Shown: positions 7,328-29,074 of the stretch, piece by piece
Position numbering within the stretch: position 1 is the stretch's first letter
Layout: each line of letters opens with the position of its first letter
Virus record (IMG/VR): IMGVR_UViG_3300032327_000348
Location: 47,935-111,934 of that record
Direction: 5' to 3' (one strand)
Length of the DNA: 64,000 bases
Source: a virus
Lineage: Duplodnaviria > Caudoviricetes
Program-made: the position numbers and the translations under genes
The notes under the pieces: model-generated
What the model saw: the letters and a program-made list of their open reading frames with translations, nothing else
Told to the model about the DNA's origin: nothing
Database searches by the model: none

Positions 7328-7650
7328 GCTATTTTTGGTTACAAGGTATAACTACCTCGCTATTAGGCGTTTGCTGCCAATAGGAATTGTGAATCGTTTG
7401 CGATTACTTTGTTGTGCTTCTGCGACCGGGTCACCCCAATCCTAACGGCTTCTACATTGCCGGACTGTCCATTTCCGTACTCTTGACCCAATCGATCCTG
7501 TGTCAGGCCCATTAGAAAGTACACTAGCACCAGCAACCGGATCAGTGGCGGGGAATCGAACCCACGTTGATAGTGTACTTACTGGTGGACCCGGCGGGCA
7601 CTGCCCCCGCGTCTTGAATCCTTTTCTATCTACTTCATACAGTCTTAACT
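7328..7650 (-). ncRNA. ssrA: Circularly permuted (two-piece) tmRNA; tag ANDSQFLLAANA at 7401-7363; outer ends approximate
   Basis: Acceptor piece comes first: T arm GCGGG-GGCAGTG-CCCGC, then CGGGTCC-ACCA ending at 7583. A 72-nt intervening segment follows. The coding piece starts GGGCCTG at 7510 and forms a 7-bp acceptor stem with the G3:U alanine determinant. Helices TTGGGTC/GATTCAA and ACAGTC/GACTGT join the pieces. Resume codon GCA; stops TAA TAG. Confidence 0.93.
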
Positions 7651-10600
7651 CAATTGTATTTATTACTAAAATACTCTTTTAGCCAAGGCCAATCATAACT
7701 TAGTCGTAGTTTGTCTAAATCACCATTGAATGATTCATAGTATTCTACAGCATCTGTGGCACCATCGATACTATATTGGGCAAAGTCACCTATACCTACA
7801 GTTGACCATGTTTTCAATCTGTCTCTACTTACCGGGCTATCATCTAACTTTAGCTTAATTGCTTCACGGAAGCTAGTACGCCACGTACTAAATTCGTCAG
7901 TGTTGTATCTTGCAACACCGCTATTCAATTCAACAACTTCGTGTTCATTGTCCAACGTAAAGTCAAGACCTTTACCTATGTTACCCAATGTAATCTGTTT
8001 ATTGTATGCAATCATAGCTTGGTGACCATACACTAATCCATTGACAGGGTTACTTGCATAAAAAATATAATGCTTTGGTACTTGTAATCTATCTGGTTGC
8101 CAACTGAAATCAAACCTACTGTTGACTCGTAACTTAGCAAATACAGTAAACATCCAAGGTGTGTTACTTGCTTCTGCAGCCGCGTGATAGGCTTGTACAC
8201 GACCATTTACACCATCAACTCTAACAACTCTATTAGATAACCCCTTAGTCACGCTCAGTAAGTGTTCATAGTTCTCGTCAGCGCCGGTTTCACCGTTGCT
8301 TAGGAAGACTATATCCAGTGGCCGGGATGTTGCTAGTTTGTTAGATTTAGCAATGTATGGGTAATCATACAATTCATTGTTGACATATTCTTTGGCTTCT
8401 TTAGGTACAACAATACATGTTCCACCCGTACTAGTAATTAGTATGTTCTTAGATTCTTTTGACCATAAACTAATTGGTTCATTGTCAACAACTTTTATTT
8501 CTTTGTTGTCTGATGTAATGAATGTAGCATAAGGCCAATCAAAATCAGTATTAGTAACAGAGACATGTGTATCACTTTCAGTTATAAAGCTAGGAGCAGG
8601 TAAACGTTTTACTTGTTGATGTTGATTGAAGTTAATCTTATCGATATTTTCTAATGTATCTAAATCTTCAACCAATGTACGCAAACGGTTTACATTGATA
8701 AAGAATGTATCGCCGTATTTTTGTTTATCACTAGGGAATACATGCAGTTGTTCCAATGAGAACGGGTCACATATATAAGTGAAGTCAAAGTTAGTGTAGT
8801 CGCAGATAGAACTACACACCCAGATATAGTGATCTTTTTTAATACCCAACTCATACAGCATGTTCTTCAACGTAGACAAATAATCACCGTCATATTCAAT
8901 GGTGTAAACATTCTTCTTTGTTTTGTTTTCAAGCAATGATATGATATTATCTATGTTATCATTGCCATAGTCAATCAAGTACACATCATATATACAATTG
9001 CTTGCGAGTGCTCGTTTTGTTTTAACAAAATTGAGATTATTCAAATGTTCTATGATTTTTACATACTTTGTGTCTTCGGGGAACGATTCTTTATTAACTA
9101 AGAAAGTTGTACCCCAATGACTCCATTGAGTACCAAACACATGTACCATTTTTTGTTGCCATGGACTAGGGTAATAATCAAATGTAAAATCAGTATAATC
9201 TAGTTCACTGTTCAATATCCAACACAATTCTGTTTCAGATTTATTGATACAACGATTAATAGTATCAACCCAACTGTTTAAATACCTTGTCTTTTGAATC
9301 TTGGGATAACGTTTTTGTAATTCTTCAAAACGATATTTGCTTTCTATGTTGCTCTTATCAACAAAGAACATACTCAAGTTACTATCAACTTCAACTTTCT
9401 GATCCTCAACATAGTTAAACTCTCTATGACCCATCATGTATAGTGGTGCGTTAACATAGTAAGTTTGTGTGTTCTTACTATAGTCGTTGCCGAATACGTT
9501 AATGTGTCTAAAGTTTTCTTCGTTTGGTTTCCAATTAAAATCAAATTTATCATAATTCAAGTCAGGGTTGATAGCCCAGAATACTTCATCTTGATGTTGT
9601 AATATCAAATCTTCAAGTGTCGTTTTAATCTTGTAACGATTAACTACTGCCTTGCGGGTTTCTTCTGTTCGTTCCATGAACACAACTTCTGTTGCTCCGG
9701 GCACTGTGTATCTAGGACCGTTGTCAGCCCATTGATATATCTGAGGTGGACTGTGTGGGTTAGGTCTCCAACTAAAGTCAAATGTTTTTAAATCATCGTT
9801 GTTGTTTACTGTCCACAATGACATATCAATCTTAGGTATAGCAAGAGGATAGTCCATGTATTTTTTAATAGTGGCTCCGGGTACAATGTACTCTACTGTT
9901 GGTTCAGTCGCACTATCATTCCATTTGTTACCAAAGACATATATCATAGGTGGTTCATATAGATTAGGGTCAGGCCTCCATCTAAAATCAAAACTATTCA
10001 TATCAATAGGAATAACTATATTCCATCTGTCCCATTCAGGTGCCAAGTCAACAATATCCATATACTTGTACTCAGTTGCACCCGGTACATGATATTCAAT
10101 AGTGGGTTTTTGTTCTGCTGGATAAAATTTGTTACCCCATACATATATGTAGGGTGGACTTGTTGGGTCGGGTCTCCATGTAAAATCAAACTTAGTTCTA
10201 TCCACTGGTTGAATTTCTCGCCATCTATCTAATTCAGGTAATACTTCAACCAATTCACTCATATACTTGTACTCAGTTGCACCCGGTACATGATATTCAA
10301 TTGTAGATTGTAATTCTCCGGCAACATGTTTGTTACCCCATACATATATGTAGGGTGGCTCGTGTAAGTTAGGATCCGGTCTCCATGTAAAATCAAACTT
10401 ATTTCTATCCACTGGTTGAATCTCTTGCCATCTATCCCATTCTGGTTCTAAATCAACAATACCCATGTATTTTTTATCAGTGGCGCCCGGTACTGTATAT
10501 TCTAATGTAGGTTTAACTTCAGCAGGGTCATATTTGTTACCCCATACATATATGTAGGGTGGACTTGTTGGGTCGGGTCTCCATGTAAAATCAAACTTAT

Positions 10601-11555
10601 TTTTATCTATATCGCAATAAACAGTCCAATTATCAGATGGCTTGAGAGCAACATCTTGTGACATATGCTTGATGTTAGTCGCACCCGGAACGATATATTC
10701 TACTGTGGGTTTTAAATCACTACCATAATGTTTATTACCCCATTGATAGATATAATCAGGTTCTTTTGGATCGGGAATCCAACAATAGTCAAAATCAATA
10801 ACATCTTCATGTGTAACCCAATGTTCTGTAGTGGGCAATAATGTTAATAAGTTTGACATGTACTTACGTTCAGTAGCGCCCGGTACGTGATACTCTAATG
10901 TTGCTTGTGTCTCACCTGGAACATATTTGTTCCCCCACACATAGATATACGCAGGCTCACGTGGATCAGGTCTCCATGACATATCAAATTTGTTTTTATC
11001 AACTTTATAAAATTCGACCCAACATTCACTATTAGGTAACAATTCTACAACATGATTCATATACTTGATTTGCGTTGCATTAGGAGTATGATACTCTAAG
11101 CAAGTTTTTAATTGTACGGGTGCAAATTTACTACCCCACTTATAGATATAAGGTGGATCAGTTGGGTCAGGATGCCAACTAAAATCAAATTTAGCACTAT
11201 CAATTAAATCTAATTCTACCCAATGTTCTGTTTTAATATCTTTTCGTTTAACAATATCAACATCTGCACGATAGATAGTCAGTGGGTCATCGTTATCTGT
11301 GTTACACAACCAAGTGCCACTATCTTTTTGATGTTGACTTGGCCATACATTGTTATGTTCTTGTGCCCATACATCTTCGTCAGGCAAGAAATCAAAATCA
11401 AAATCCCAATCAAAATTTCGATAATCACATAATTCGTTAATTATCCAAAAATGTTCTGTAGTAGATTGACTTCTAGCATCAGTTAAATCAATTGCGTGTC
11501 GTTCTCTTGGGTGGACATTCGGTTTTTTACCGTAATAAAATACATCTCTTAACAT
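7650..11555 (-). CDS. 1301-aa repeat protein with degenerate glycosyltransferase-like domains
   Basis: Eight tandem W/P/Y-rich repeats, several FDF-x-W/Y-x-P domains, and a C-terminal domain paralogous to 25915..26868 (VDGVNG..AYHAAA, NGLVYG, WRTSFRE). Confidence 0.8.
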   Translation of the reverse strand: MLRDVFYYGKKPNVHPRERHAIDLTDARSQSTTEHFWIINELCDYRNFDWDFDFDFLPDEDVWAQEHNNVWPSQHQKDSGTWLCNTDNDDPLTIYRADVDIVKRKDIKTEHWVELDLIDSAKFDFSWHPDPTDPPYIYKWGSKFAPVQLKTCLEYHTPNATQIKYMNHVVELLPNSECWVEFYKVDKNKFDMSWRPDPREPAYIYVWGNKYVPGETQATLEYHVPGATERKYMSNLLTLLPTTEHWVTHEDVIDFDYCWIPDPKEPDYIYQWGNKHYGSDLKPTVEYIVPGATNIKHMSQDVALKPSDNWTVYCDIDKNKFDFTWRPDPTSPPYIYVWGNKYDPAEVKPTLEYTVPGATDKKYMGIVDLEPEWDRWQEIQPVDRNKFDFTWRPDPNLHEPPYIYVWGNKHVAGELQSTIEYHVPGATEYKYMSELVEVLPELDRWREIQPVDRTKFDFTWRPDPTSPPYIYVWGNKFYPAEQKPTIEYHVPGATEYKYMDIVDLAPEWDRWNIVIPIDMNSFDFRWRPDPNLYEPPMIYVFGNKWNDSATEPTVEYIVPGATIKKYMDYPLAIPKIDMSLWTVNNNDDLKTFDFSWRPNPHSPPQIYQWADNGPRYTVPGATEVVFMERTEETRKAVVNRYKIKTTLEDLILQHQDEVFWAINPDLNYDKFDFNWKPNEENFRHINVFGNDYSKNTQTYYVNAPLYMMGHREFNYVEDQKVEVDSNLSMFFVDKSNIESKYRFEELQKRYPKIQKTRYLNSWVDTINRCINKSETELCWILNSELDYTDFTFDYYPSPWQQKMVHVFGTQWSHWGTTFLVNKESFPEDTKYVKIIEHLNNLNFVKTKRALASNCIYDVYLIDYGNDNIDNIISLLENKTKKNVYTIEYDGDYLSTLKNMLYELGIKKDHYIWVCSSICDYTNFDFTYICDPFSLEQLHVFPSDKQKYGDTFFINVNRLRTLVEDLDTLENIDKINFNQHQQVKRLPAPSFITESDTHVSVTNTDFDWPYATFITSDNKEIKVVDNEPISLWSKESKNILITSTGGTCIVVPKEAKEYVNNELYDYPYIAKSNKLATSRPLDIVFLSNGETGADENYEHLLSVTKGLSNRVVRVDGVNGRVQAYHAAAEASNTPWMFTVFAKLRVNSRFDFSWQPDRLQVPKHYIFYASNPVNGLVYGHQAMIAYNKQITLGNIGKGLDFTLDNEHEVVELNSGVARYNTDEFSTWRTSFREAIKLKLDDSPVSRDRLKTWSTVGIGDFAQYSIDGATDAVEYYESFNGDLDKLRLSYDWPWLKEYFSNKYN
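7657..7662 (-). promoter_or_regulatory. Late-type promoter motif TAAATA upstream of the tmRNA
   Basis: Lies in the last codons of the 1301-aa gene, just before the acceptor piece. Confidence 0.55.
9675..11225 (-). repeat. Eight in-frame tandem repeats of about 65-69 aa, last one truncated (FDFxWRPDP..PYIYVWGNK..PTxEYxVPGAT..KYM)
   Basis: Exact DNA copies: 68 nt at 10127-10194 = 10532-10599; 42 nt at 10059-10100 = 10260-10301. Confidence 0.92.
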
Positions 11556-11565
11556 AGATACTTAC

Positions 11566-13071
11566 TTATGATATAACTTTAACATTATACATTAATTCAA
11601 AGCGATCGGCATCTTTTCGGTTATTTACCATTGGCTCACCGCGGATGTTTAGGCTAGTGTTCAATAACATTGGACATCCTGTCATGATATACCATTTTTC
11701 AAGGAGTTCTCGTATTCCACTTCCATCTGACGGCACTGTCTGGACACGACTAGTCCCGTCGTGATGAACAATAGCAGGAAATAAGTCAGGTACCCTACAA
11801 CGGGCGATTGACTGCATATACCTGCTGTTACTGAAACCATGAGGCATATCAAAATACATATCAGCATACTCCTCCAGAATGACTGGCGCAAATGGTCTAA
11901 ATTTTTGTCTTCGTTTAATTTCATTTACTTTGTCCTTGATTTCTGTTCCTCTAGGGTCTGCAAGTAGGCTTCTATTTCCCAAGGCTCTTGGTCCAAACTC
12001 GGCTCGGCCATTGGCTACACCCACTATTTTATCGGATATTAATATATCAAGTAAATTGTTTACGGGATATTTACCATCTATGTTATATCCTAGGTATGCA
12101 TTACTCCATTCTACTTTATACCCATATCCTAAACAGGCTGCTCCAAGACTAGAACCAGCATCGCCGGGATTAGGCATGATCCATATATTATCAAAATAAT
12201 TACCTAATAATCTATTCGCTAAACAATTTAACGCAACACCGCCACCGTATACTAAGTTCTTACTACTACCTAACATTCGTGCTTTGCTAATAACATTTTT
12301 AATAAGTTCTTCAGCAATCAGTTGTGCGCTACAGGCAATGTCCATATTATCAGCACCCTCAATGAAATCATCAGGTACTCCTATGTGTAAATTGTTTCTA
12401 AAAGTAATATCTTTATATGATTTTACTAATGTGTCAGACATTTCTTTTAATTCTTTTGATAGATTAGATTTGCCGTATGCTGCCATACCCATCAGTATGT
12501 ATTCTTCATCCAACGGTTTTAGTCCCACTCTTTGTGTCATAGCACTATAAAATAAACCAATGCTATGTGGATATGTTTGTCCCCACAATTTTTTATATTG
12601 TGCCAAGCCGTTCTTATCGTACCACGCATCATAAATGCTAATGGTATCAAATTCACCAATAGCATCAATAACAACCACCGTGGCATCATCATGAGGACTT
12701 GTTTGAAACCCTGCTGCCGCGTGACTTAAGTGATGGTTGTGTGTATGAACTTTGCCACCACGACCATCTTGAAGATGATGTAATAATCTAGTACCAATTA
12801 ATTCTTTAACAGACAAATTAGATAATTTAGGCTTTTCACCTGAACGCACTTGTCGTAAAAATTTCATCCACGGGCGTTCATAGTAATGTATTTCTACGTC
12901 ACGTGATGTGAGGTATGATATAGCATCTTCTATTAAACCATAGCATAGGTATTTGTTATGTTTGCTTTTACTGTACCGTTCGCTATGACCAGCAAATAAT
13001 ATATTACCATTGTCATCGAGTACGCTCAATGCGGCATCATGGAAGCCGCATGATATTCCAATATAGTTCAT
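11566..13071 (-). CDS. Carbamoyltransferase, NodU/CmcH/TobZ family
   Basis: HDAA..ERYS, HHLSHAAAGF, DAIGE, GGVALNC, PGDAG, EFGPRALGNRS, FRPFAP, DGTSRVQTV, LNTSLN. Confidence 0.95.
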   Translation of the reverse strand: MNYIGISCGFHDAALSVLDDNGNILFAGHSERYSKSKHNKYLCYGLIEDAISYLTSRDVEIHYYERPWMKFLRQVRSGEKPKLSNLSVKELIGTRLLHHLQDGRGGKVHTHNHHLSHAAAGFQTSPHDDATVVVIDAIGEFDTISIYDAWYDKNGLAQYKKLWGQTYPHSIGLFYSAMTQRVGLKPLDEEYILMGMAAYGKSNLSKELKEMSDTLVKSYKDITFRNNLHIGVPDDFIEGADNMDIACSAQLIAEELIKNVISKARMLGSSKNLVYGGGVALNCLANRLLGNYFDNIWIMPNPGDAGSSLGAACLGYGYKVEWSNAYLGYNIDGKYPVNNLLDILISDKIVGVANGRAEFGPRALGNRSLLADPRGTEIKDKVNEIKRRQKFRPFAPVILEEYADMYFDMPHGFSNSRYMQSIARCRVPDLFPAIVHHDGTSRVQTVPSDGSGIRELLEKWYIMTGCPMLLNTSLNIRGEPMVNNRKDADRFELMYNVKVIS

Positions 13072-13073: not shown

Positions 13074-13175
13074 TTACTTGTAGATAAACGGATCTCGTTT
13101 TTTAAGTTCTTTAAGACGCTTGCGATAATAAATTTCCATTCGAATTTTATTTATTAAATTTTTAATCCATTTCAT
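13074..13175 (-). CDS. 33-aa basic peptide MKWIKNLINKIRMEIYYRKRLKELKKRDPFIYK
   Basis: Hand-translated. AAGGAG RBS; fills the gap between a radical SAM gene and the carbamoyltransferase. Confidence 0.8.
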   Translation of the reverse strand: MKWIKNLINKIRMEIYYRKRLKELKKRDPFIYK

Positions 13176-14525: not shown

Positions 14526-14530
14526 AATTG

Positions 14531-14608: not shown

Positions 14609-15655
14609 GTGATGGAGATAACACCTGGAAAACCCATAAGAACATATGGCGTGAACGGATCATGGAGAGATTGGTCAACTGACGAACTAGTTGGAGCAAA
14701 ATTAAACTACTTAACTGATTGGAAGTGTGGGGCCGGCGTCGATAGTTTATTCATCGATATGGATGGTGGTGTTTGGACTGCCAGTTGCAGAGTGGGAGGT
14801 AAGTTGGGTAGTGTTTGGGATGATTTTAGTGTACCTGAAGATTGGATTAATTGTACTAAAAATGTCTGTAGTTGCGGTGCTGACTTGTTCATCCCAAAAA
14901 CAAGTACACTAGAATACAAACCCTTATTGCGTAAGGGTCAAGATTTACCTACCCAGCACGAATTACGAAATGATGAATTAACAGAATTTGTTGGTATGGA
15001 GCGCACTCATGCTAGTACACAAAAACAAGTGTACTGGGAAATAGGTCGTAGATGTAATTACGATTGTAGTTATTGCTGGCCCTGGATTCATAATAATACC
15101 GACCCACACAAGCCACTAGAAGATTTAATGAGGGCTACTCATTTGATTGAAACTAAATTCACCAAAGGTGAGAGTGTTAATTTCATTATTAGTGGTGGAG
15201 AACCAACCGTCAATAAAGATTTCTTAGATTGGTTACGATACTTAAATGCATGTGGACACCATGTGAGTTTACATAGCAACGGCTCACGATTACCTGACTA
15301 TTACAAAGAGATTATTCATTATGGTGATTTGAACCTTAGTGTTCACTACGAGTTTTATGACCGTGCTAAATTTGTCAAGGTCGTTGAAGCAATTGCTAAA
15401 GAAAAATCTGAACACGGTGATTGTGGTCACTTAGAAGTTAAGTTCATGATGGCTCCGCATAATCGTGAGGAAACATTAAGTTTGGAAGCAGAATTAAAAG
15501 AATTGCCATTTTTCAAAGAATACTGTACATGGGCTATTGTTCCTATTCGCGGTGATTTGAATAACAAGACTAGTGCCCCTAATACAGGGTCGGGAAGTGA
15601 AGTCATGATTGGTTACACTAAAGAAGATTATATTTTGTTTGGGGATAGAAAATAA
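14609..15655 (+). CDS. Radical SAM enzyme, auxiliary Cys-rich domain N-terminal to the core
   Basis: CNYDCSYC, SGGEPT, SNGSR; N-terminal WKC..G...C.VGG.LG...C..NVCSC. Confidence 0.9.
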   Translation: MMEITPGKPIRTYGVNGSWRDWSTDELVGAKLNYLTDWKCGAGVDSLFIDMDGGVWTASCRVGGKLGSVWDDFSVPEDWINCTKNVCSCGADLFIPKTSTLEYKPLLRKGQDLPTQHELRNDELTEFVGMERTHASTQKQVYWEIGRRCNYDCSYCWPWIHNNTDPHKPLEDLMRATHLIETKFTKGESVNFIISGGEPTVNKDFLDWLRYLNACGHHVSLHSNGSRLPDYYKEIIHYGDLNLSVHYEFYDRAKFVKVVEAIAKEKSEHGDCGHLEVKFMMAPHNREETLSLEAELKELPFFKEYCTWAIVPIRGDLNNKTSAPNTGSGSEVMIGYTKEDYILFGDRK

Positions 15656-18259: not shown

Positions 18260-19106
18260 TTTTATGTGCAATAATTGTAGCAAAACTTTTTACTGAATCT
18301 AAATTTGGATGTGCATTTTTAGGAGAAACCCAAAATTTTGGGTTTTGCCCAGTAACCTCTAAGAGTGCACTAGTCCACGATTCTCCTACAGATGGGTGTA
18401 TATCCTCAGTTGGAGTAAAATTAACCCAACATTTAGCATCTAATGATTCGACTAGGCGAAGTGTATCTACGAAAATTCCAGAATTAAATGATAGAGATTG
18501 TTTTGTAAAATCGTTAGAAGAGCCTAATGCTCGATAAAAAGTATAAGATATACCATTTAATCGTAGAAAATTTTCTAAAAGCAATATATTTTTAATATAG
18601 TTAATATACAAATCTACCTCATCCGCGTTTATTAAAACAACTTTTATATAATCTTCATAATCTAATACAAAATCATTTTTTCCTAACTGATTAGGATTTA
18701 AATTTATAAAACCTTTTGATTTTTTAATAAATTTCATAGCTCTAGCAATACTAGACCATCCTATTACTACGTGATAGTTATGTCTATCTTCTATTGGAAT
18801 AGACAATATATAATTTACAGTAGATAGTGAAATCATATCGTTGCTTTTTCCTTCATTCGACAGATCAATTTTATTATCAGTATCGATACCTACTAACTCA
18901 GATACAACGTGTGGCAAGTTATATTTTCTCTTATAAACGTTGTGGTACTCATTCCAAGTATCTCTGTTTTCATTAGTATGTTGTTTTGACGAAACCGTCG
19001 TAAACCATTCCCATGATAACTTATTACCTACTTCTTTTGAATAATTATCCCATACAAGTTCGTCACCTGCCATAAAACTACAACCATTAAACACTATTTT
19101 TTTCAT
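18234..19106 (-). CDS. SGNH/GDSL-like hydrolase or acyltransferase
   Basis: VFNGCSF (block I Ser), LS..G.SN, C-terminal HPN. Confidence 0.65.
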   Translation of the reverse strand: MKKIVFNGCSFMAGDELVWDNYSKEVGNKLSWEWFTTVSSKQHTNENRDTWNEYHNVYKRKYNLPHVVSELVGIDTDNKIDLSNEGKSNDMISLSTVNYILSIPIEDRHNYHVVIGWSSIARAMKFIKKSKGFINLNPNQLGKNDFVLDYEDYIKVVLINADEVDLYINYIKNILLLENFLRLNGISYTFYRALGSSNDFTKQSLSFNSGIFVDTLRLVESLDAKCWVNFTPTEDIHPSVGESWTSALLEVTGQNPKFWVSPKNAHPNLDSVKSFATIIAHKIKEDKCLD

Positions 19107-20257: not shown

Positions 20258-21431
20258 CTTTGTATTCCATAACTAAATTACCCCATTCACCAAACGTGGT
20301 CTTAAAATCTTGTTGTCTAAATTTATCTAGTTCTTCATTCTTGCTAATGAATTCATTGATAAGTGAATCACTGTCTCTGGATAAATGCAAGAAGTTTTTA
20401 ACAATATCAAAGTCTTTGTGAGTTAAACGAGCAGACACTATTTCTTTTAATTTATCTGGTAAATTTTTTATACTATGACTAGGAGGGTAATGTAATATGT
20501 TATAGTAGGTGAATAAGTCCATTGATTTAGCCCACTCTAAGTATTCTGGCATGTAATAGATATTAAACGAACTAACAGTTGGACACAATGTTAGGAACAA
20601 ATTCTTATTGTTCTTTTTCAACTCTACAAATTTTGTAATATTTTCTTGTACTACATTCCATTCAGTAGGGTAGCGTTCATACTCTAATCTAGCACCTAAA
20701 TCATCAATTGATAGGCACAATGTTATTTCTTTGAACTGAAGTATGTTATCTAAAAATTTCTTATTATATAAGGTGCCATTGGTGTTCAATAATACTGATA
20801 TGTTTTTTGCTTTACCTGACTTGATTAATAAGTCTAGAATTTTTATATTTTCTGGACTTGCCAATGGTTCACCACCAGTAACCTCTAAGTGAATCAAGTC
20901 TTCTGCCCACTTGTTAATAACTTCTTCGTTAGATGTTCCTAATATCTTATTACTAATCCAATAATCACTACCCTCAATTGTTACGTTCAACCGTTCTTGA
21001 TATTCTTTTAAAAATGTAGAGCTTGCTTGCGGTCCACATATTCTACATTTAAGATTACATACATTGTTTAATTTCAAATCCATAGCACGTGGTCCACCGG
21101 TGGCTATAGTCTCAAACACCATACCAGTCGTATCTACTTTTTTATCAATAGACCATTGTAGTCTAAAACTCTTGATTCCGGCGGCTTCTTCGTCCCAGCA
21201 GCTTTGGCATTCTTTGGGACGTTTGCCATCTAAGAACGCTTGTCTTAAATTTTGAAATCTAATATCATTCCATAATACATTTAGTTTGCCTTCTTTCATG
21301 TTAGGCAATTGATACTCATTTGAAATATCAGGTTGTGCGAATTTACAACATGGACGCAATGATCCATTAACGTCAGTTGATATGTTAGTCCATGGCAGTG
21401 AACAAAATGAGTCAGGCAATTGATTACTCAT
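20250..21431 (-). CDS. Radical SAM enzyme with N-terminal Twitch-like domain
   Basis: CNLKCRIC, GGEP, TNGT; CSLPW..PCC..CQSCW. Confidence 0.92.
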   Translation of the reverse strand: MSNQLPDSFCSLPWTNISTDVNGSLRPCCKFAQPDISNEYQLPNMKEGKLNVLWNDIRFQNLRQAFLDGKRPKECQSCWDEEAAGIKSFRLQWSIDKKVDTTGMVFETIATGGPRAMDLKLNNVCNLKCRICGPQASSTFLKEYQERLNVTIEGSDYWISNKILGTSNEEVINKWAEDLIHLEVTGGEPLASPENIKILDLLIKSGKAKNISVLLNTNGTLYNKKFLDNILQFKEITLCLSIDDLGARLEYERYPTEWNVVQENITKFVELKKNNKNLFLTLCPTVSSFNIYYMPEYLEWAKSMDLFTYYNILHYPPSHSIKNLPDKLKEIVSARLTHKDFDIVKNFLHLSRDSDSLINEFISKNEELDKFRQQDFKTTFGEWGNLVMEYKDE

Positions 21432-22821
21432 ACTTCTTTAACATCTCATATAGTTTAGGAAAAGTATCGTTGAATGAATCTTTACGATAATCATCATGTA
21501 AACGTGTTTTATCAAAAAATGTTTTTAACAGTTCTTCATCATATTTAGATCCATACATAAAATTAATAATATTGTCAATGGAGGGCGACCAATTGGTCAA
21601 TAGATTGTGTACATCTATAGATAGCAATTGTTCTTTAATTATATCTTTAACTTCATTGGGAAGATTTACAATAGAATAATGATGCGGGTAATGGACTAAA
21701 TTCAATACTACTTGCATGCCATAGTCTTTAACAAACTCAAAGAATTCTTTTAGATATAACACATTTAGTATACCAACTGTTGTATAGAATTTTAATATTA
21801 TGTTAACGTTGTACTTTGCAGCCAATTCTTTATATTGTGCAATATTTTGCAATACTTCATCCCACTTAGCATTCTTACGTTGAAATTCAAAACGAGAACC
21901 AATATCGTCTATACTAAAGTTTATTCCAACTTCCTTAAAGGGAGCCCATAGTTTAAAGAATTCTTCATCACAAATAGTACCGTTGGTATTGTAGTACAGA
22001 CTAGTATTTGCCGGTGTGCCGAACTCATTTATAATACGTAATATTTTATCATGCTCTTGTTGCATTAATGGTTCGCCGCCATAGAATTCTAAATATTCAA
22101 TAGTAGGAGCCCATTGTTTTAATATTTCTTCATTGTTAAGATTCTCAGAAAACTTTTCTCTTGCATTGCTAGTAAAAGTTTTAACATCACCCATATCAAT
22201 AACTTTTAAATCAATTATTTCTTTCATCCACTGAGTACTTAAAAAAGGTGTGCATATTCTACACTTGAGATTGCACAAATTACTTAGTTTTAAATCTAAA
22301 GTTTTTGGATACAGTCTAGGTATATGATGGAAAAATGTAGCATAGGGATGTTCTTTACCGCCCTTTTCTTTAGTTAGCCTCATACTGGGTATGCCAGCGG
22401 CTTCTTCATCCCAGCATGCCTTGCAACCAGTGGGACGTTCATTTCTAAGAAACTGATCTCGTAAATTTTGAAATTCAGGCTGCTCCCATAATTCACCTAT
22501 ATCTACCTCAGGTAATTTAGGAACATTTTGTTGCCATGTAGGATCACCTACTTTATACTTACAACAAGGACGTGCTCTACCATCTGGATCTAATTGAAAA
22601 TGTGTAAAGGGATATAAACAAAAATTATCCGGGACCTGTTTTCTCAAAGTTTCGGTATATTCAGGTTCATACCCCGGTTCTTTACCGTAATGTGGAGAAT
22701 TTTTAATAATACTCAATAAATCTAAATTATAGGTTTCATCAAGTAATTTACTAGTAAACCATACAAAAGATCCTTTACCGTCATCTTCTTTATAGATAGG
22801 TATGAATTGTTTCTTATCCAT
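21424..22821 (-). CDS. Radical SAM enzyme with N-terminal Twitch-like domain
   Basis: CNLKCRIC, GGEP, TNGT; CLYPF..PCC..CKACW; close paralog of 20250..21431. Confidence 0.92.
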   Translation of the reverse strand: MDKKQFIPIYKEDDGKGSFVWFTSKLLDETYNLDLLSIIKNSPHYGKEPGYEPEYTETLRKQVPDNFCLYPFTHFQLDPDGRARPCCKYKVGDPTWQQNVPKLPEVDIGELWEQPEFQNLRDQFLRNERPTGCKACWDEEAAGIPSMRLTKEKGGKEHPYATFFHHIPRLYPKTLDLKLSNLCNLKCRICTPFLSTQWMKEIIDLKVIDMGDVKTFTSNAREKFSENLNNEEILKQWAPTIEYLEFYGGEPLMQQEHDKILRIINEFGTPANTSLYYNTNGTICDEEFFKLWAPFKEVGINFSIDDIGSRFEFQRKNAKWDEVLQNIAQYKELAAKYNVNIILKFYTTVGILNVLYLKEFFEFVKDYGMQVVLNLVHYPHHYSIVNLPNEVKDIIKEQLLSIDVHNLLTNWSPSIDNIINFMYGSKYDEELLKTFFDKTRLHDDYRKDSFNDTFPKLYEMLKKYE

Positions 22822-24206
22822 TATAAACCTTTACACATGTTATAAAAGTCAGTGTATTCTGGGAATGTGCCAGTTAACTGTAATCCTCTGCGTGAATCAT
22901 AAGTGTCAAACCACTCAGCGAATTTCTTTCTGTCATTTAATCTATCAATTGATTGATTGTTAATACCATCAATAATAGTTTGTAGGAATTTAGCATACGC
23001 TGACCATGTACCAAGTGAATCTTTTACAGGTGGCATTGATTCAGCATTATCATTTAGATACTGTATTGTATCTTCTATGTATGGAATAAAGTCTTGTGAC
23101 AATATCATCGGACTTTGCCAACTAGGGAAGCTAACTAAGTTTTGCTTCAATGTGACTGGTCTACCATGTTTTTCGTATAGTTCTTTTGTGTAGGCAATAA
23201 AGTTTTTACTACTGGTTATATTCAATGCGTTAACACTCATGATGAACCCAAAATCAAACTCTAGTTCTTTGTTGGATAATATCGTATCGATGTTCTTAGT
23301 GAATCGTTCCCAACTAACGCCATTGCGAATGTACTCTGCTTTGTCTCCCACACTCTCCATGCTACCTAATATTTCTAAGTTAAATACTTTGGATATCTTG
23401 GGTAGATACTGCATTACCTTCTGAAGATAATTTGATGGTGTATTAAAGTTACTTACTATCCATAGTGTAATCTTTTCTTTGCGTGTATGATTAATTTCTT
23501 CAACGCTAGCAATAACTTTATCCATGAAAGTATAGAACTCAGGCATGATTAGTGGTTCGCCACCAATCAATCCAAGTCGTGTTATACTATGGCGTCCAAC
23601 CTTATTAAACCATTCCCAGAACTTACCGTCAAAACTAGTGGGTGCTTTGGGAAATTCTCTATCGTATTGTTCTTGTGTTATCTCGTTATATTTGATGCGC
23701 TCAGTTGCCCACTGTGTAGAATAATGATGACTACAATACATACACTTCAAGTCGCATGTATTTCCCATACTGATTTCCAACATGTATGGTTTGTAACTAT
23801 ACAACGCTGGATGATTTATATCATTGATTTTACTTAATTCTAGTGAAAGTTTTTCATCAGAATATTCACTAGGTGCTACTTGTTTAGACTTGATTAATTG
23901 CCACCACATTTGTTTAGGATGATGGCGTGGACTCTGTATGCCTGATTCTTCTAGTCGCCAGCAACTGACACATGCTTCAGTTTTACGACCTTGTATCAAG
24001 TCCAATCGTTCTTGCCGTTGCTTTGGAGAATTCAAGAAAGCATCAACGCCAAATTCTTGTAACTCGTTCTCTGTTACTAGACTAGTAGGCGTTCTACAGC
24101 AACTTCTAAACTCACCCCTATCCATACCAAATATAGGATAGTTCCATTTTAAATCGCATATAGTGTCTAATGGGCCAACATTAGTTGCATTAGTTATTAT
24201 TTTCAT
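22821..24206 (-). CDS. Radical SAM enzyme with N-terminal Twitch-like domain
   Basis: CDLKCMYC, GGEP; CDLKW..SCC..CVSCW; close paralog of 13185..14525. Confidence 0.92.
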   Translation of the reverse strand: MKIITNATNVGPLDTICDLKWNYPIFGMDRGEFRSCCRTPTSLVTENELQEFGVDAFLNSPKQRQERLDLIQGRKTEACVSCWRLEESGIQSPRHHPKQMWWQLIKSKQVAPSEYSDEKLSLELSKINDINHPALYSYKPYMLEISMGNTCDLKCMYCSHHYSTQWATERIKYNEITQEQYDREFPKAPTSFDGKFWEWFNKVGRHSITRLGLIGGEPLIMPEFYTFMDKVIASVEEINHTRKEKITLWIVSNFNTPSNYLQKVMQYLPKISKVFNLEILGSMESVGDKAEYIRNGVSWERFTKNIDTILSNKELEFDFGFIMSVNALNITSSKNFIAYTKELYEKHGRPVTLKQNLVSFPSWQSPMILSQDFIPYIEDTIQYLNDNAESMPPVKDSLGTWSAYAKFLQTIIDGINNQSIDRLNDRKKFAEWFDTYDSRRGLQLTGTFPEYTDFYNMCKGL

Positions 24207-24218: not shown

Positions 24219-24971
24219 TTAGGTTATTGAATTATCTATTTTACTTTTTATTGTCAATAATTGGTCATAATTAGTAATCATTGAACTATACGGAAGGTCA
24301 TATAATTTTAGTAAACCCGGTGTTGAGTTAAACGGTATCATATTGGATGTGCAGTCTGATTTCAATGTTTGATAATTAACAGTCACACAATCGATCTCCT
24401 CTGCCATCTTTTGTTTAGTATCATATGCTAGTAAAAATTCAGTATACAATACTTCAAACTTATATGTATCCAATGTGATATTAGGAGCAATAATATTTTT
24501 TTGTTTCCCATTAATGGTACTATACCAATATTCATTATTTGTATTCCAGTGGTGAGCCACTCCGGTGTCTATAGCTACCAACAAACTTATGGTACTATCA
24601 AACGGGTCTCTATTAATATTGACAATCTTAAATCCATATTCTTTAATTTTTTTAAGATGTTCTATGTCATCTGTAACTTGATTTGGCCAGTACATGTATT
24701 TTATAATGACTGATTGATTTTTTGATCCACGTGATAAAATATCTAATCTAGAATTTATAAAGTCATTTTTAGAAATTTCTATAATAGTTTTTTCTTCTTT
24801 AAATGCACAGATTAAACCAGTAGCGTTTACTTCATAATGTTTATCATCTACAAATGGCGTGAAAAATTCATCTAAATTAATAAAATTTTTAACGTTATAT
24901 AAGTTAAAAGCAATTCCATTGAGCAGCCAAGAACTTCCTGTTCTAGGAATACTAAGTACGCAATATCTCAT
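24219..24971 (-). CDS. Sulfotransferase-like protein (Stf0/NodH-like PAPS-binding fold)
   Basis: 5'-PSB-like motif PRTGSSWL and 3'-PB-like motif RDPFDSTIS. Confidence 0.7.
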   Translation of the reverse strand: MRYCVLSIPRTGSSWLLNGIAFNLYNVKNFINLDEFFTPFVDDKHYEVNATGLICAFKEEKTIIEISKNDFINSRLDILSRGSKNQSVIIKYMYWPNQVTDDIEHLKKIKEYGFKIVNINRDPFDSTISLLVAIDTGVAHHWNTNNEYWYSTINGKQKNIIAPNITLDTYKFEVLYTEFLLAYDTKQKMAEEIDCVTVNYQTLKSDCTSNMIPFNSTPGLLKLYDLPYSSMITNYDQLLTIKSKIDNSIT

Positions 24972-25921
24972 AATTGTTCCTTTGTACTCATGATGTCAAA
25001 ATTACAGTGACACATTGTTTTATTACAAATGACAGGTGTTTTAGTTACTTCAAAATTTTCAAAGATGTTGCCAATCTTGCCGCCAACTTTACACCATCCT
25101 CTAAACACATCTCCAGACAAGTCAACAACAATTTGTTCTTCTCCACTGTAGCATTTCCATCCACTCCAATCATTTGTCTTTTGACTAATGAATCTATGTG
25201 CGCTAGATACAATTTCTGTGCCATCTTCTTTAACCATCTTCATAGCACCTCGATAGTAATCAAATGATTTGGTATATTTGATGTGTTTAACAATTAATTC
25301 ATGTTGCTTATCAAAAATCTTTTTCTGAAAATCATCATAGTCAAACAATGTATCACCAAAATCATGAATCAATGGTTGTAGTGCCATACTGATGTTACCC
25401 AATGTTTTAACTTTGTTTGCGATAGCATAACAGAAGTCAAACTTCTCTGGACTCATCATAATGTTTACGTGTGTTCTTACATCATTATTTAATAACTTAA
25501 CTACTTGAACAAAGTGGTCAGCATCAGCAAACTCAGGATGAAAACTTAGACACACGTGGTCAAAGTATTGTTTGTTATCTTCCCACCAACGTAGTGTTCT
25601 ACTACCATTGCTAATTAATCCCACCTTAGCACCAAGCGCAGTAGCATGTTGGCAAATTTCAGTGAAGTGTTTATATAGTGTTACTTCTCCACCTGTCAAC
25701 TCATAATATACTTTTCTAGGAGCAACTTGTTCAGATACCCTAGTCATAAATTGTTTAATCTGTTCTATCTCAGGCCACTTTATGCTACCTGAGTGAAGGT
25801 CATCTGGACAATAACTACATTCAAAATTACAAGTGTTGCCTAAGCACCAGTTAACTACGAACCAATCTTCATGTGTGGGATTACTGTGTGCTAATTTAAT
25901 ATAGTCGTGTTGCATTACCAT
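24968..25921 (-). CDS. Radical SAM enzyme with C-terminal Twitch/SPASM-like domain
   Basis: CNFECSYC, GGE, SNGSR; C-terminal WKC..G...C.VGG.IG...C..TMCHC. Confidence 0.92.
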   Translation of the reverse strand: MVMQHDYIKLAHSNPTHEDWFVVNWCLGNTCNFECSYCPDDLHSGSIKWPEIEQIKQFMTRVSEQVAPRKVYYELTGGEVTLYKHFTEICQHATALGAKVGLISNGSRTLRWWEDNKQYFDHVCLSFHPEFADADHFVQVVKLLNNDVRTHVNIMMSPEKFDFCYAIANKVKTLGNISMALQPLIHDFGDTLFDYDDFQKKIFDKQHELIVKHIKYTKSFDYYRGAMKMVKEDGTEIVSSAHRFISQKTNDWSGWKCYSGEEQIVVDLSGDVFRGWCKVGGKIGNIFENFEVTKTPVICNKTMCHCNFDIMSTKEQL

Positions 25922-26868
25922 CCTTCTATTTTTCTAATAACGTCCATTTCTTTTACTAATGGTCCGAGATTATATTTATCGGCACTATAATGGCGTTTGA
26001 AGAACTTGCTTTGAGATCCGTCAAAGTGATGCATTGGTAAACCAAGTTTATCAGTCAATGCTAAACCTATTAATCCTGATTGACGATCAGGGTCTCGGTT
26101 TTCGTGTTCTTCCCATAGTACAGTATAGTTATCAAACCATTGCACATTAGCAGGATCCCATTCTGTAAGCATAGTCATGTATGTACCAAGTCTTGCACCA
26201 TAAATAGCCCATTCTCCGTTCTCCACATCACGACCAATATTGTGCCAAATAGTTAAGTTATTTAAGTTGCGGCTTGCTACTGATTCTTTTAATGTATCTA
26301 CTGTAGGTTTTGCCCCTCTATCAAGAACCATTTTCACACCTTCACGGAAACCTGCACGCCATGCTTGAAACGGTGTATGGTTTGGATAGGTAGTAGAATA
26401 GCAGTCATGCATTGCCCAGTATAAGTTATCTTTGCTATCTAAACAAAAATCAGCAATACGAGACACATCTCCATCTTTTTGATGTTCATGTGTTTGCATC
26501 TCACGCACATAAGTCTTTGTCCAACTACTCATGCCACCGTTACCATAACGTAGCCCGTTGATTGAGTTAGTTGCTTTCCAACGAAATTGTGCTAACTTAA
26601 AGTTAGGATCTTTCTCAGTGAAATCTAATTGTAGGTTAAAGAAACTTTCTTCTGGCATGTTGTCCCCATCAATCAGAATAAAACGTTCAGTATCGCTTGC
26701 TTCACCTGCTGCTTTGTGTGCGGCATCACTACCTTTAACGCCATCAACACGCTTTGCCCATGGTACCATGTTTTTAATTTTTAACCAAAATTCTTCTTTT
26801 TGTGGTTCGTCATAACTGAGATATATGCAATCTAAATCAGCTATGTCTACAATATTATCCAAGTTCAT
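25915..26868 (-). CDS. Glycosyltransferase-like protein (GT-A fold)
   Basis: LSYDEP, GVKGSDAAHKAA, DxD motif IDGDN. Confidence 0.65.
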   Translation of the reverse strand: MNLDNIVDIADLDCIYLSYDEPQKEEFWLKIKNMVPWAKRVDGVKGSDAAHKAAGEASDTERFILIDGDNMPEESFFNLQLDFTEKDPNFKLAQFRWKATNSINGLRYGNGGMSSWTKTYVREMQTHEHQKDGDVSRIADFCLDSKDNLYWAMHDCYSTTYPNHTPFQAWRAGFREGVKMVLDRGAKPTVDTLKESVASRNLNNLTIWHNIGRDVENGEWAIYGARLGTYMTMLTEWDPANVQWFDNYTVLWEEHENRDPDRQSGLIGLALTDKLGLPMHHFDGSQSKFFKRHYSADKYNLGPLVKEMDVIRKIEGW

Positions 26869-27205
26869 ATATGTTTAATTTCCATTTAATAGTTTCGCCG
26901 GTGTAATCGTTAGGGACTATGATACTGATATCTTCTTTAGCGCATTTTACACCTTCTGTGGTGTTGGGCGTTAATCTTGTTACGACCAAACTAGAATTTA
27001 TTGTTGAGAGTTTACCATTGACTATTCTTATGTCAGGTCGAGCCTGAGCAAAAGTAATACTGTCAATGACTACATAATTTCCTTCTATCTTCTCACACGT
27101 ATATGTTATTACTTTACCTTGATCATCGTAATATAATCTAAATTCGGGCGGGATAATTTTAGGTGCTTCCCAAATTATAAAACTATCTTCTATGCTTTCA
27201 TTCAT
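26855..27205 (-). CDS. Hypothetical protein (116 aa)
   Basis: Overlaps both neighbours in the coupled operon. Confidence 0.8.
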   Translation of the reverse strand: MNESIEDSFIIWEAPKIIPPEFRLYYDDQGKVITYTCEKIEGNYVVIDSITFAQARPDIRIVNGKLSTINSSLVVTRLTPNTTEGVKCAKEDISIIVPNDYTGETIKWKLNIYELG

Positions 27206-27951
27206 AATATACCCTCATTAATTATAGTTGCAAAATCCTTAATATGATAATGTAAGGGGTAATGTTGTGGATATGTGTTGATTCTTATTTGATCCGATAA
27301 ACATTCAGTGACCAATACATCTGTCCAATTTTCAGATGGCATGCCATTTATATATTGTTTCATGTGTGTCATACTCAACAACCCGGGTATTTGAGTTTTT
27401 TCTTTACCCAAAATATGACAAGCAATTGAGTATGCCCAGTCAGTTGTTGCTTCTTCTTGTGGATTACATTTCAATATTGCCTTATAGTCTTTCCAATTCT
27501 CAAATACATCTCTGACAATTTCAAAGAACTTTTTGGCAGTATCTGATTTTTTAAAATATGTAATAGCGTTATAACACTCCGGTAAATTGTTATCATCAAT
27601 GAATTTGCGATAGGCACGTACATTAGATATTTCACCTTTAAAGTTTCTGATAGTGTCACATACAACTACATCACGCTGACCTAATGTATCCCATAGATAA
27701 TCTAAACTATTTGGTATGTACATGTCTGCTTCCAACTTAATTGTCTCGTCATATGGACTACATTCATAAACTTGCCAATCATTCTGCAACTTCCAATTTG
27801 TATGAGGTGCTTGGTCTCCGTAGGGCAACATTTCGGTAGTGACAATCGTTATATTGGCGTCAGGCATTACTCGTTTAATACTTGCCTTTAGTGTTGTAGC
27901 ACACTTGACATAATTTTCACCTTGTGCCATAATTACAAAGCCTTTGGTCAT
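27202..27951 (-). CDS. Glycosyltransferase-like protein (GT8-like)
   Basis: SPYDETIKLEAD (ExD variant); paralog of 27948..28751. Confidence 0.7.
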   Translation of the reverse strand: MTKGFVIMAQGENYVKCATTLKASIKRVMPDANITIVTTEMLPYGDQAPHTNWKLQNDWQVYECSPYDETIKLEADMYIPNSLDYLWDTLGQRDVVVCDTIRNFKGEISNVRAYRKFIDDNNLPECYNAITYFKKSDTAKKFFEIVRDVFENWKDYKAILKCNPQEEATTDWAYSIACHILGKEKTQIPGLLSMTHMKQYINGMPSENWTDVLVTECLSDQIRINTYPQHYPLHYHIKDFATIINEGIL

Positions 27952-28751
27952 TTAATGAGCTCCATAAAAATATCTTTGTTCATAGTATGAAAGTCTGTGT
28001 TTTTAATTGTAATATATTCTTTGCGAATTTTACCACGTTGCCAATTATCATACATGATTGTGTAGTCTGTATTAAATTCATCATTGTTGTTATTATAAAC
28101 TAAGGTGTTTTTGCCAACGTGTACTAAATTCCACGGAATGATGTCTTCTTTAGGACTTGTGTGCCCGTTAACAATTCTTGTTGCTAGTGTTAGTGCATAG
28201 TCATTACGATACACGCCGGCAATAAAACTATGAATGTTTGCGTAATGGTCATAATTATTTTGAATCATCTCCAAACATTCAAAAATTTGTTTTGCTCGGT
28301 TTGTTTTTCTAAACATCACTACAGTAGCCCATAATGTTTTAAAACTATATGCACTTAATACTTCTTGTGCTACTCCGGGATGCATTAAGAAACTAGTAGT
28401 GTCATGGCAACAAAAATCTGTAGGTATATCAAATAATCTTAATAGAGTAGTTGAATTAACTACATAATCGGTGTCAAGCAAAATAGTGTCATCATATGGA
28501 CTTAATTCATATGCCTGATATCTACCTTTATTAATCCAAACTGAGTGCTCTCTGATATTATTCTTATCTGGTTCAACAACAATAGTATTGTCAAACTGAT
28601 AGTCAGGGTTTGCCGGGATAGATGTTATATCTGTCACAACTGTTACAGGTAGATCCAAAAAGTGATTAATGCGTTTAGCAGTTGCTACTGCCATTTCATA
28701 GTATTTGTACTTTGGTGAGTTAAACGCAAATAATAATGCGCCTTTGCTCAT
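27948..28751 (-). CDS. Glycosyltransferase-like protein (GT8-like)
   Basis: SPYDDTILLDTD (DxD), RNDYAL. Confidence 0.75.
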   Translation of the reverse strand: MSKGALLFAFNSPKYKYYEMAVATAKRINHFLDLPVTVVTDITSIPANPDYQFDNTIVVEPDKNNIREHSVWINKGRYQAYELSPYDDTILLDTDYVVNSTTLLRLFDIPTDFCCHDTTSFLMHPGVAQEVLSAYSFKTLWATVVMFRKTNRAKQIFECLEMIQNNYDHYANIHSFIAGVYRNDYALTLATRIVNGHTSPKEDIIPWNLVHVGKNTLVYNNNNDEFNTDYTIMYDNWQRGKIRKEYITIKNTDFHTMNKDIFMELIK

Positions 28752-29053
28752 CGGTTACCTTCTAGTTCTTTCCATTCTTTATACCATTCTAGCATAACGG
28801 TATTATATGTAGTTTGTAGTAACTCTAATAAGTGTTCACGATTAACCTGTACCGGATTAGAAAATGTATCAATCATGACAATATAATTGTCTGTGAATGA
28901 ATTTAAAAAAGAAATGGTTTGTTGGTCGGCCTTCCAGAGTCCACCTTGATCAGCAACCGTTAGTTTACTATCATACTTATCTTTAAGTTGGGCTTTTGCC
29001 GAGTTGTGATTGAAGCGGGCTTTGGCTTCTAAAATTAAGGTCTTTGTATCCAT
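28748..29053 (-). CDS. Hypothetical protein (101 aa), first gene of the tailoring operon
   Basis: AGGAG RBS and upstream TAAATA motif. Confidence 0.8.
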   Translation of the reverse strand: MDTKTLILEAKARFNHNSAKAQLKDKYDSKLTVADQGGLWKADQQTISFLNSFTDNYIVMIDTFSNPVQVNREHLLELLQTTYNTVMLEWYKEWKELEGNR

Positions 29054-29068
29054 ATGTACTCCTAAGAG

Positions 29069-29074
29069 TATTTA
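29069..29074 (-). promoter_or_regulatory. Late-type promoter motif TAAATA heading the glycosyltransferase/radical SAM operon
   Basis: CTAAATA directly before the RBS of the gene starting at 29053. Confidence 0.65.

Follow-up and report, generated by a model that had tools for sequence, protein, structure and literature searches.

An island of glycosyltransferase and radical SAM genes beside the tail-fibre genes of an uncultured jumbo phage: a candidate system for glycan building and tailoring

Gene content of the island

The 64,000-nucleotide (nt) window analyzed here (the whole stretch of DNA, bases 47935-111934 of the 111,934-bp IMG/VR virus record IMGVR_UViG_3300032327_000348; CheckV completeness 32%) contains, directly after the tail-fibre genes, an island at window positions 7650-29074 in which glycosyltransferases (GTs) lie together with eight radical S-adenosylmethionine (SAM) enzymes, a carbamoyltransferase, and sulfotransferase-like and SGNH-like genes. 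Complete relatives of the source phage are 320 to 367 kb in length, and the lineage is, to judge from its sequences, that of an uncultured jumbo phage abundant in metagenomes. Megablast of 12 kb against cultured phages gave no match; the nearest cultured phage with parts of the island is Ralstonia phage RsoM2USA (344 kb), a member of the XacN1/Rak2-like jumbo group. Almost everything in the window between 63021 and 18234 lies on the minus strand. Between 29053 and 18234 the minus-strand genes overlap by 1 to 14 nt or are separated by gaps of 2 to 12 nt, as would be expected of the single operon proposed for them in a first-pass annotation of the sequence. No island protein has a hydrophobic segment of membrane-span length. 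For the seven non-radical-SAM proteins without a family, searches of Pfam, PHROGs and NCBIfam returned only phrog_1903 and DUF6071, even at E<=10.

Three GTs and two small proteins form a core at the head of this operon. Its first gene encodes u101, a conserved 101-amino-acid (aa) protein (28748..29053, minus strand) with no family match, found in 79 of the 80 viral loci that were retrieved with the profile of the third GT and that serve as the comparison set. It is followed by a GT8-like GT-A glycosyltransferase of the retaining type (27948..28751, minus strand), whose AlphaFold2 (AF2) model (predicted local distance difference test [pLDDT] score, 94) has 275 PDB matches at E<=1e-3, with glycogenin at the top; the Foldseek matches include glycogenin, alpha-1,3-GalT (alpha3GalT), GlyE and Skp1 GalT at E ~2e-6. 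With the GT8-like sequence profile, 19 of 20 PDB matches were glycogenin, but only at E values of 0.07 to 0.7. The next gene encodes a paralogous GT8-like GT-A enzyme (27202..27951, minus strand; phrog_1903; BLASTP 1e-7 against its neighbour), and a joint alignment of the pair leaves D95 (of the DxD), H255 and K259 (a C-terminal H..K) invariant. Neither has a Pfam match even at E<=10, PF01501 included; their neighbours in the ESM Atlas bear PF01501 or PF03407. Between this pair and the third GT lies u116, a conserved 116-aa protein (26855..27205, minus strand), which also has no family match and occurs in 69 of the 80 loci.

The third enzyme is a DxD GT-A glycosyltransferase with a helical C-terminal domain (25915..26868, minus strand), modelled by AF2 at pLDDT 90.5 from 44 diverse homologues. 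Residues 4 to 171 of the model have the GT-A fold, with Z scores of 9.8 to 7.0 to many GT-A enzymes (VIA), and nucleotidyltransferases of the same fold are also among these neighbours. Its Foldseek matches, all at about 1e-3, include SunS, TarP, RmlT and the PBCV-1 capsid GT A64R; a PDB search with the single sequence gave no match. At least 90% of the sequences in this nameless family keep D67 and D69; metagenomes hold over 8000 of its clusters (90% identity), and 1125 representatives remain at 50% identity. Because hhalign gives a probability of 1.4% between them, the GT8-like and DxD families are not demonstrably related by sequence.

At the other end of the island, a 1301-aa protein (7650..11555, minus strand) combines repeated copies of a beta-strand piece of the GT-A fold with a GT-A-like domain at its C terminus. 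At least eight clear copies of the pattern FDFxWxPDP...YIYxWGN correspond to a strand fragment of the DxD GT, and the C-terminal domain is homologous to that enzyme (E 3e-13), with the DxD replaced. The three GT-A-like genes of the first-pass annotation thus hold up through two AF2 models and one paralogue, and its GT-derived repeat protein through the repeats and the C-terminal homology. That annotation had also named the lack of a GT-A fold in these genes as a ground for abandoning its reading; the models have GT-A folds.

The eight radical SAM genes, each with one CxxxCxxC motif, comprise five with an N-terminal twitch domain, one B12-dependent enzyme and two small enzymes. PF04055 is above its cut-off in seven; the eighth (22821-24206, minus strand) scores 23.5 bits with PF04055 and 247.3 bits with NF033640 ("twitch domain-containing radical SAM protein," N_Twi_rSAM; cut-off, 170 bits). 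It belongs to a tandem of four twitch genes (19109..24206, minus strand), followed by those at 21424-22821 (NF033640, 333 bits), 20250-21431 (309 bits) and 19109-20257 (158 bits, under the cut-off), and the fifth twitch gene lies at 13185-14543 (minus strand; 246.5 bits). The cysteine set of SPASM/twitch enzymes, here N-terminal to the core, is invariant in all five (C68, C86, C133 and C136). In a comparison of the family profile with solved structures, the N-terminal region aligned to the twitch domain of BtrN (6e-8), and the core found its best match in viperin (1.7e-8), with SkfB, MoaA and BlsE after BtrN. A single-sequence PDB search with one of the twitch genes gave no match, and a literature search found no characterized N-terminal-twitch (NF033640) enzyme. 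Bacterial homologues are widespread (Bdellovibrionales, Chitinophagales, Acidimicrobiales, Paenibacillus), singly or in small groups within mixed small-molecule clusters; their neighbours include further radical SAM enzymes, ketosynthases, short-chain dehydrogenases/reductases (SDRs), PhyH dioxygenases, methyltransferases and sulfotransferases, as well as NDP-hexose 2,3-dehydratase, FdtA and GT1. Among these neighbours there were no precursor peptides, peptidases or exporters.

The B12-binding (class B) radical SAM enzyme has 867 aa (15656..18259, plus strand), with an N-terminal B12 domain (PF02310, 1.7e-11, 44.5 bits against a cut-off of 32.1), a radical SAM domain (PF04055, 5.8e-14, 53 bits) and a C-terminal half without assignment. 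Its best solved relative is AprD4 (9e-7), and it reaches no equivalog cut-off in NCBIfam. The two small enzymes, of 317 aa (24968..25921, minus strand; PF04055 7.3e-10; CxxxCxxC at residue 31) and 348 aa (14609..15655, plus strand; PF04055 1.1e-15), score under the QueE cut-offs. The N-terminal ~100 residues of the 348-aa protein resemble the C-terminal ~100 of the 317-aa protein (29-36%, tblastn), which suggests a common accessory domain on opposite sides of the core.

Three further enzymes may extend the tailoring set. The carbamoyltransferase (11566..13071, minus strand) has both the Carbam_trans_N and the Carbam_trans_C domain (PF02543, 4e-34, 119 bits; PF16861, 1.8e-47, 161.5 bits) and so belongs to the NodU/CmcH family. 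It was rejected as NodU itself, with 134.9 bits against the NF041651 equivalog cut-off of 1000, and an identity as NodU, QueE or viperin was likewise rejected for every gene, the scores being far under the equivalog cut-offs. The sulfotransferase-like gene (24219..24971, minus strand) is a variable accessory gene, absent from loci L010 and L011 and duplicated in L012 and L195. Sulfotransferases using 3'-phosphoadenosine-5'-phosphosulfate (PAPS) are recognized by a 5'-phosphosulfate-binding loop (PxxGxxW-type), a 3'-phosphate-binding motif (RxxxDxxxS) and the sulfotransferase fold; here PRTGS(S/T)W and RDxFxSxxS are invariant, and the ESM-Atlas neighbours in both features and structure are all sulfotransferases (TM 0.58-0.69). 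Nothing was found in Pfam, and the PDB profile search gave only chance matches. The SGNH-like gene (18234..19106, minus strand; DUF6071, 26.6 bits against a cut-off of 27) would encode a hydrolase or acyltransferase, with an invariant Ser/Gly/Asn/His set of Ser10 (in GCS), G86-x-S-N89 and H266, the residue types by which SGNH enzymes are recognized (catalytic Ser in block I, Gly, Asn in block III and His in block V); a PDB profile search with its family found nothing relevant. The chance matches of the sulfotransferase-like and SGNH-like searches were KtrA and EPRS. On the strand opposite the SGNH-like gene, the B12 radical SAM gene converges with it, the two overlapping tail to tail by 26 nt (18234-18259) with no terminator between them. 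The first-pass annotation had listed all of these enzymes: its carbamoyltransferase stands at the level of the family, its eight radical SAM genes are supported by PF04055 in seven cases and by NF033640 in the eighth, and its PAPS-motif sulfotransferase-like and SGNH-like genes appear sound from their invariant residues and, for the former, from the Atlas neighbours.

Directly upstream of the carbamoyltransferase gene lies an open reading frame (ORF) for a strongly basic protein of 33 aa (13074..13175, minus strand; MKWIKNLINKIRMEIYYRKRLKELKKRDPFIYK), ending in ...KKRDPFIYK. Its C terminus, ...YRKKLKELRKRDPFIY(K), is kept across both the clade of the window and its sister clade (see below), far better than the neighbouring genes. 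This mini-ORF usually stands just 5' of the carbamoyltransferase gene and, in locus L018, 5' of a cytidylyltransferase-HD gene. It has at least 1681 metagenome clusters (searched with a longer stop-to-stop frame from locus L176), no Pfam match and no family name.

Conservation and transcription of the module

Upstream of the island lie a baseplate-hub-like gene, a 6046-aa ORF and fibre-like genes. The anchor of the island on this side is a fibre-like structural gene with a C-terminal intramolecular-chaperone (IMC) domain (30058..31281, minus strand; PF11962 Peptidase_G2 IMC, 1.4e-5; phrog_14394, virion structural protein), present in 1 to 4 copies in relatives. It is followed by the gene of a 316-aa Ser/Thr/Asn/Gly-rich protein (29099..30049, minus strand; S+T+N+G, 52% of the composition), which is found in 79 of the 80 loci, stands about 10-15 nt behind the fibre gene in relatives, and is probably cotranscribed with it. 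We regard the 316-aa protein as a candidate glycan acceptor.

The order u206, IMC fibre gene (1-4 copies), S/T/N/G-rich protein, u101, GT8-like, GT8-like, (u116), DxD GT is invariant in all 80 loci, and wherever at least 9.5 kb of downstream sequence was available (57 of 57 loci), one to eight twitch radical SAM genes lie directly behind the core. These radical SAM genes are highly divergent: clustering of 296 twitch fragments gave 28 groups at 40% identity and 50 at 50%, with those of the window mostly in rare groups, and phages whose u206 is ~90% identical to that of the window carry twitch genes only 22-28% identical to its own. The accessory genes (sulfotransferase-like, SGNH-like, carbamoyltransferase, repeat protein and B12 enzyme) vary in presence between loci. 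A GT core fixed beside the fibre genes, with changing radical SAM content, is the pattern that the first-pass annotation had proposed to look for in related large phages.

In RsoM2USA the order is fibre gene, small ORF, GT8-like, GT8-like, small ORF, DxD GT, twitch radical SAM and a second DxD-GT-like gene. ORF355 is the fibre gene, and ORF353, ORF352, ORF350, ORF349 and ORF348 correspond to the two GT8-like enzymes, the DxD GT, the twitch enzyme and the second DxD-GT-like gene, respectively. This module (ORFs 348-355) lies within the structural block, beside virion proteins confirmed by mass spectrometry in a published proteomic study, which covers the 10 strongest gel bands only and so bears neither on glycosylation nor on the products of the module. 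The single 6046-aa ORF of the window (32104-50244, minus strand) lies between the baseplate-like and fibre genes; the equivalent place in RsoM2USA is held by a 2541-aa virion-confirmed structural protein.

The arrays of relatives hold further enzymes, among them an RmlC-like epimerase fold and a 1285-aa cytidylyltransferase-HD protein, and the marine-type cassette holds a cytidylyltransferase-like gene. Five large relatives (G001-G005, the records with L149, L166, L155, L146 and L175) have 3, 13, 13, 17 and 21 radical SAM genes, respectively, scattered over many sites of the genome and not confined to the fibre-linked island. A second group of loci (L019-L037), probably from pelagimyophage-type phages, has a conserved six-gene cassette (twitch, twitch, B12 radical SAM, twitch, small radical SAM, twitch) accompanied by DUF6071, cytidylyltransferase-like, DUF6267 and metallophosphoesterase genes; no DxD GT was found within the flanks examined (<=10 kb, shorter at contig ends).

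A TAAATA late-type box (29069..29074, minus strand) precedes the operon at a distance of 21 nt from its first ATG, and after the box comes a TAGGAG ribosome-binding site. The box lies within a block, ATC(C/T)ATCTAAATACT...TAGGAG, that is kept in 33 of 33 distinct upstream sequences from the clade of the window. A T4-type late promoter is defined by TATAAATA about 6 nt before the transcript start; here the TAAATA core alone is present (CTAAATAC), at a position, -21/-22, that is kept in every one of the 33 close relatives. Another TAAATA, at 14588, stands 21 nt before the start of the plus-strand radical SAM pair (14609 on). The first-pass annotation had read these two as promoters together with a TAAATA at 14531 and a TAAGTA at 11559. 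All four motifs are where it had placed them, and the first two are promoter-like; the other two are not credible and were rejected, because that at 14531 falls within an annotated ORF and that at 11559 shares bases with the stop codon of the gene before it, the next ATG being 3 nt away.

Textbook TTGACA-N17-TATAAT promoters precede the non-structural genes of the window, and the island operon has TAAATA; therefore, the phage appears to use both promoter classes. Inside the island, neither sigma-70 sites (89, against 97 in shuffled sequences) nor terminators (9 against 9.3) are enriched. The strongest sigma-70-type site of the region, TTGACA-N17-TATACT with a TG, lies on the minus strand at 7297-7269 and adjoins a perfect bidirectional terminator hairpin at 7306-7327. 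In the sister clade (L151-L199; DxD GT 56-64% identical), the same module stands behind a GC-rich terminator hairpin and a sigma-70-type promoter, TTTACT-N17-TGTATAAT, with an extended -10 element, roughly 60 nt ahead of the u101 homologue. The module thus appears to have been rewired between promoter classes across clades.

Proposed function and competing explanations

Based on its predicted gene inventory, the island probably serves the building and tailoring of carbohydrate. A carbohydrate pathway is the best-supported reading because three GTs are combined with a carbamoyltransferase, a sulfotransferase-like and an SGNH-like gene and because the solved relatives of the remaining enzymes are sugar and nucleotide enzymes. 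The sugar-tailoring logic of the first-pass annotation also draws support from the GT-A folds, from the closeness to BtrN and AprD4, and from the RmlC-like and cytidylyltransferase-like genes of relatives. We propose that the fixed core (two GT8-like retaining GT-A enzymes, the DxD GT-A enzyme and the two small proteins) would, as its folds suggest, assemble a short glycan from nucleotide sugars and that the variable enzymes would then oxidise, epimerise, deoxygenate, C-methylate, sulfate, (de)acylate and carbamoylate its sugars, going by the chemistry of their families. The likeliest acceptors would be the S/T/N/G-rich 316-aa protein and the fibre with the IMC domain, encoded immediately upstream, and virion glycans would then differ between relatives. 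To the reading as a whole, a cytoplasmic glycan building and tailoring island with its product on the phage's own fibre proteins, we assign a probability of roughly 0.42. The acceptor is the weakest link of this reading, and a virion protein is a tentative choice for it.

The choice is favoured by the linkage to fibre genes in every locus, by the solubility of the proteins, by the late-type box in the clade of the window and by the adjoining upstream gene, whose product is 52% Ser/Thr/Asn/Gly. Moreover, enzymes that glycosylate proteins are found among the solved neighbours of the GTs (glycogenin, GlyE and Skp1 GalT, with SunS and PBCV-1 A64R for the DxD enzyme). Late expression of the module in one clade, with probable early expression in the other, may suit enzymes needed only when structural proteins are made; such clade-dependent timing would fit poorly with DNA modification or exclusion, both of which need early expression.

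Several points weigh against the proposal of glycosylated fibres. There is no nucleotide-sugar synthesis gene in the window, and the DxD GT has fold matches of modest strength (E ~1e-3 with Foldseek; Z 8-10, near the background of the tool). The twitch family is not restricted to sugars, because its Paenibacillus homologues adjoin ketosynthases and an acyl ligase. Late timing is not a conserved property of the module, because in the sister clade a terminator and a sigma-70-type promoter occupy the same place; in T4-like phages, such a promoter would mean early expression. Lipid-linked O-units of the host are likewise possible substrates of soluble GTs. The glycan, its acceptor and the timing of expression are all inferred from genes.

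It is unlikely, though the leading alternative, that the island remodels an envelope polysaccharide of the host (O-antigen, capsule or S-layer glycan), blocking superinfection or the trapping of progeny on debris. This would accord with the published reading of GTs and radical SAM cassettes in the pelagimyophage host-recognition cluster (PMC7029224) and of cyanophage sugar clusters (PMC7824862). Hypervariability beside receptor-binding genes resembles that of O-antigen loci, and the sigma-70-type promoter of the sister clade fits early expression. However, the island is without a flippase, a polymerase, a polyprenol-phosphate GT or any membrane protein; the late-type box of the window's clade would act too late for exclusion to help, and the module is bound to fibre genes in every locus. 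That same strict linkage is left unexplained if the product is a free soluble secondary metabolite (aminoglycoside-, nucleoside- or glycolipid-like) directed against the host or competitors, which we consider rather less likely again. The window has no scaffold-forming enzyme (cyclitol synthase, polyketide synthase or nonribosomal peptide synthetase), no exporter and no self-resistance gene, even though the closest solved relatives are aminoglycoside and nucleoside enzymes (BtrN, AprD4, BlsE and viperin), the bacterial homologues lie in clusters with ketosynthases, SDRs and acyl ligases, and metabolite clusters centred on a carbamoyltransferase have been proposed for jumbo cyanophages (PMC7824862).

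The radical SAM enzymes might act on protein instead of sugar, introducing epimerisations, C-methylations or cross-links into the S/T/N/G-rich fibre protein or the 33-aa mini-ORF product in the manner of proteusins or mycofactocin, with glycosylation as a further step. SPASM/twitch enzymes often act on peptides, a B12 radical SAM enzyme accompanied by several other radical SAM enzymes recalls polytheonamide maturation, and the island contains the mini-ORF, whose strongly conserved product ends in DPFIYK. We nevertheless hold this to be improbable: the mini-ORF travels with the carbamoyltransferase (in L018, with the cytidylyltransferase-HD gene) rather than with the radical SAM array, a leader peptidase and a transporter are both absent, the bacterial twitch homologues have small-molecule neighbours, and the best solved matches are sugar and nucleotide enzymes. 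A classification as a ribosomally synthesized and post-translationally modified peptide cluster was rejected, the mini-ORF not being beside the radical SAM array and family searches yielding no peptidase or transporter family. Hypermodification of phage DNA, for example by glycosylation of bases with subsequent tailoring, seems if anything slightly more improbable. In phages, DNA modification is known to involve GTs and radical SAM enzymes (T4 glucosylation, 7-deazaguanines), and early expression, as the promoter of the sister clade would allow, fits it. But there is no consistent hydroxymethylase partner (a thymidylate-synthase-like gene, taken as a marker of hydroxymethyl-pyrimidine DNA, occurs in only two of the five large relatives), the small radical SAM enzymes fall short of the QueE cut-offs, and the module always lies within the fibre block. 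The first-pass annotation had argued against DNA modification from late-type promoters; that argument holds for the clade of the window, with TAAATA in 33 of 33 sequences, and fails for the sister clade, with its sigma-70-type promoter.

If fibre glycosylation is nonetheless correct, it would bear on host range, on the evasion of glycan-sensing host defences and on phage stability. The jumbo-phage lineage could diversify the chemistry of its tail-fibre glycans through fast-evolving tandem arrays of twitch radical SAM enzymes, a virion "glyco-serotype" system with an analogue in bacterial O-antigen variation. We consider this possible but doubtful; if true, it would involve sugar-modifying radical chemistry without characterized precedent. 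The lineage is a common one, given the more than 8000 metagenome clusters of the DxD GT family, and this locus is its most variable. Since no characterized N-terminal-twitch member was found, the family represents a large pool of uncharacterized radical sugar or small-molecule chemistry, whatever the acceptor. The question is accessible at the bench, because the cultured phage RsoM2USA carries the core module.

Comparison with known systems

We know of no established case of virus-encoded glycosylation in jumbo phages of Gram-negative hosts, nor of any case with radical SAM enzymes as the main tailoring set. GTs acting on the capsid and tail tube of mycobacteriophages were reportedly described by Freeman et al. 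in 2023. Virion glycosylation by virus-encoded enzymes is established for the fibril clusters of Megavirinae and for chloroviruses (PMC10117803, PMC9614988). The clusters of Megavirinae, PBCV-1 and mycobacteriophages likewise place their own cytoplasmic GT-A and sugar-tailoring enzymes beside structural genes, and their content likewise differs between related viruses; PBCV-1 A64R and a Che8 GT are among the fold neighbours of the island GTs. Unlike those clusters, the island is known from genes alone, has no nucleotide-sugar synthesis genes in the window and draws most of its tailoring set from radical SAM enzymes (eight in the window and as many as 21 per genome among relatives), a composition not known from any of those systems.

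Individual enzymes resemble those of aminoglycoside and Nod-factor pathways (BtrN, AprD4, GenK, TobZ/NodU and NodH). The twitch enzymes match BtrN (6e-8) and the B12 enzyme matches AprD4 (9e-7), the carbamoyltransferase has both domains of NodU/CmcH, and the sulfotransferase-like protein resembles NodH clusters in the Atlas. However, no equivalog cut-off is reached, and no enzyme for a cyclitol or chitin-oligomer scaffold accompanies them. The twitch domain of BtrN is C-terminal to the radical SAM core, whereas that of the island enzymes is N-terminal, and NF033640 proteins, which bacteria encode singly or in small groups, form tandem arrays in the island.

Parallels in gene content are also found in pelagimyophages and cyanophages. 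Iyer et al. described clusters of a carbamoyltransferase with sugar genes in jumbo cyanophages (PMC7824862), and Zaragoza-Solas et al. noted that the host-recognition cluster of pelagimyophages contains GT8 genes together with radical SAM cassettes that vary (PMC7029224). The latter cluster, shared with cyanomyophages, has the same hypervariable mix of tail-fibre genes, GT8-type GTs and radical SAM cassettes, and the six-gene cassette of loci L019-L037 is similar to the pelagimyophage cassettes. That study is one of annotation only and proposed modification of the host O-chain; it did not include the fixed three-GT core, the N-terminal-twitch subfamily or the extent of the variability, and the lineage considered here is that of a much larger jumbo phage (~320-370 kb). 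What appears to be new is a fixed core of three GTs with GT-A folds in the models, an N-terminal-twitch subfamily as the variable element together with the extent of its variability, an apparent swap of promoters between clades, and a predicted repeat protein that has lost the DxD.

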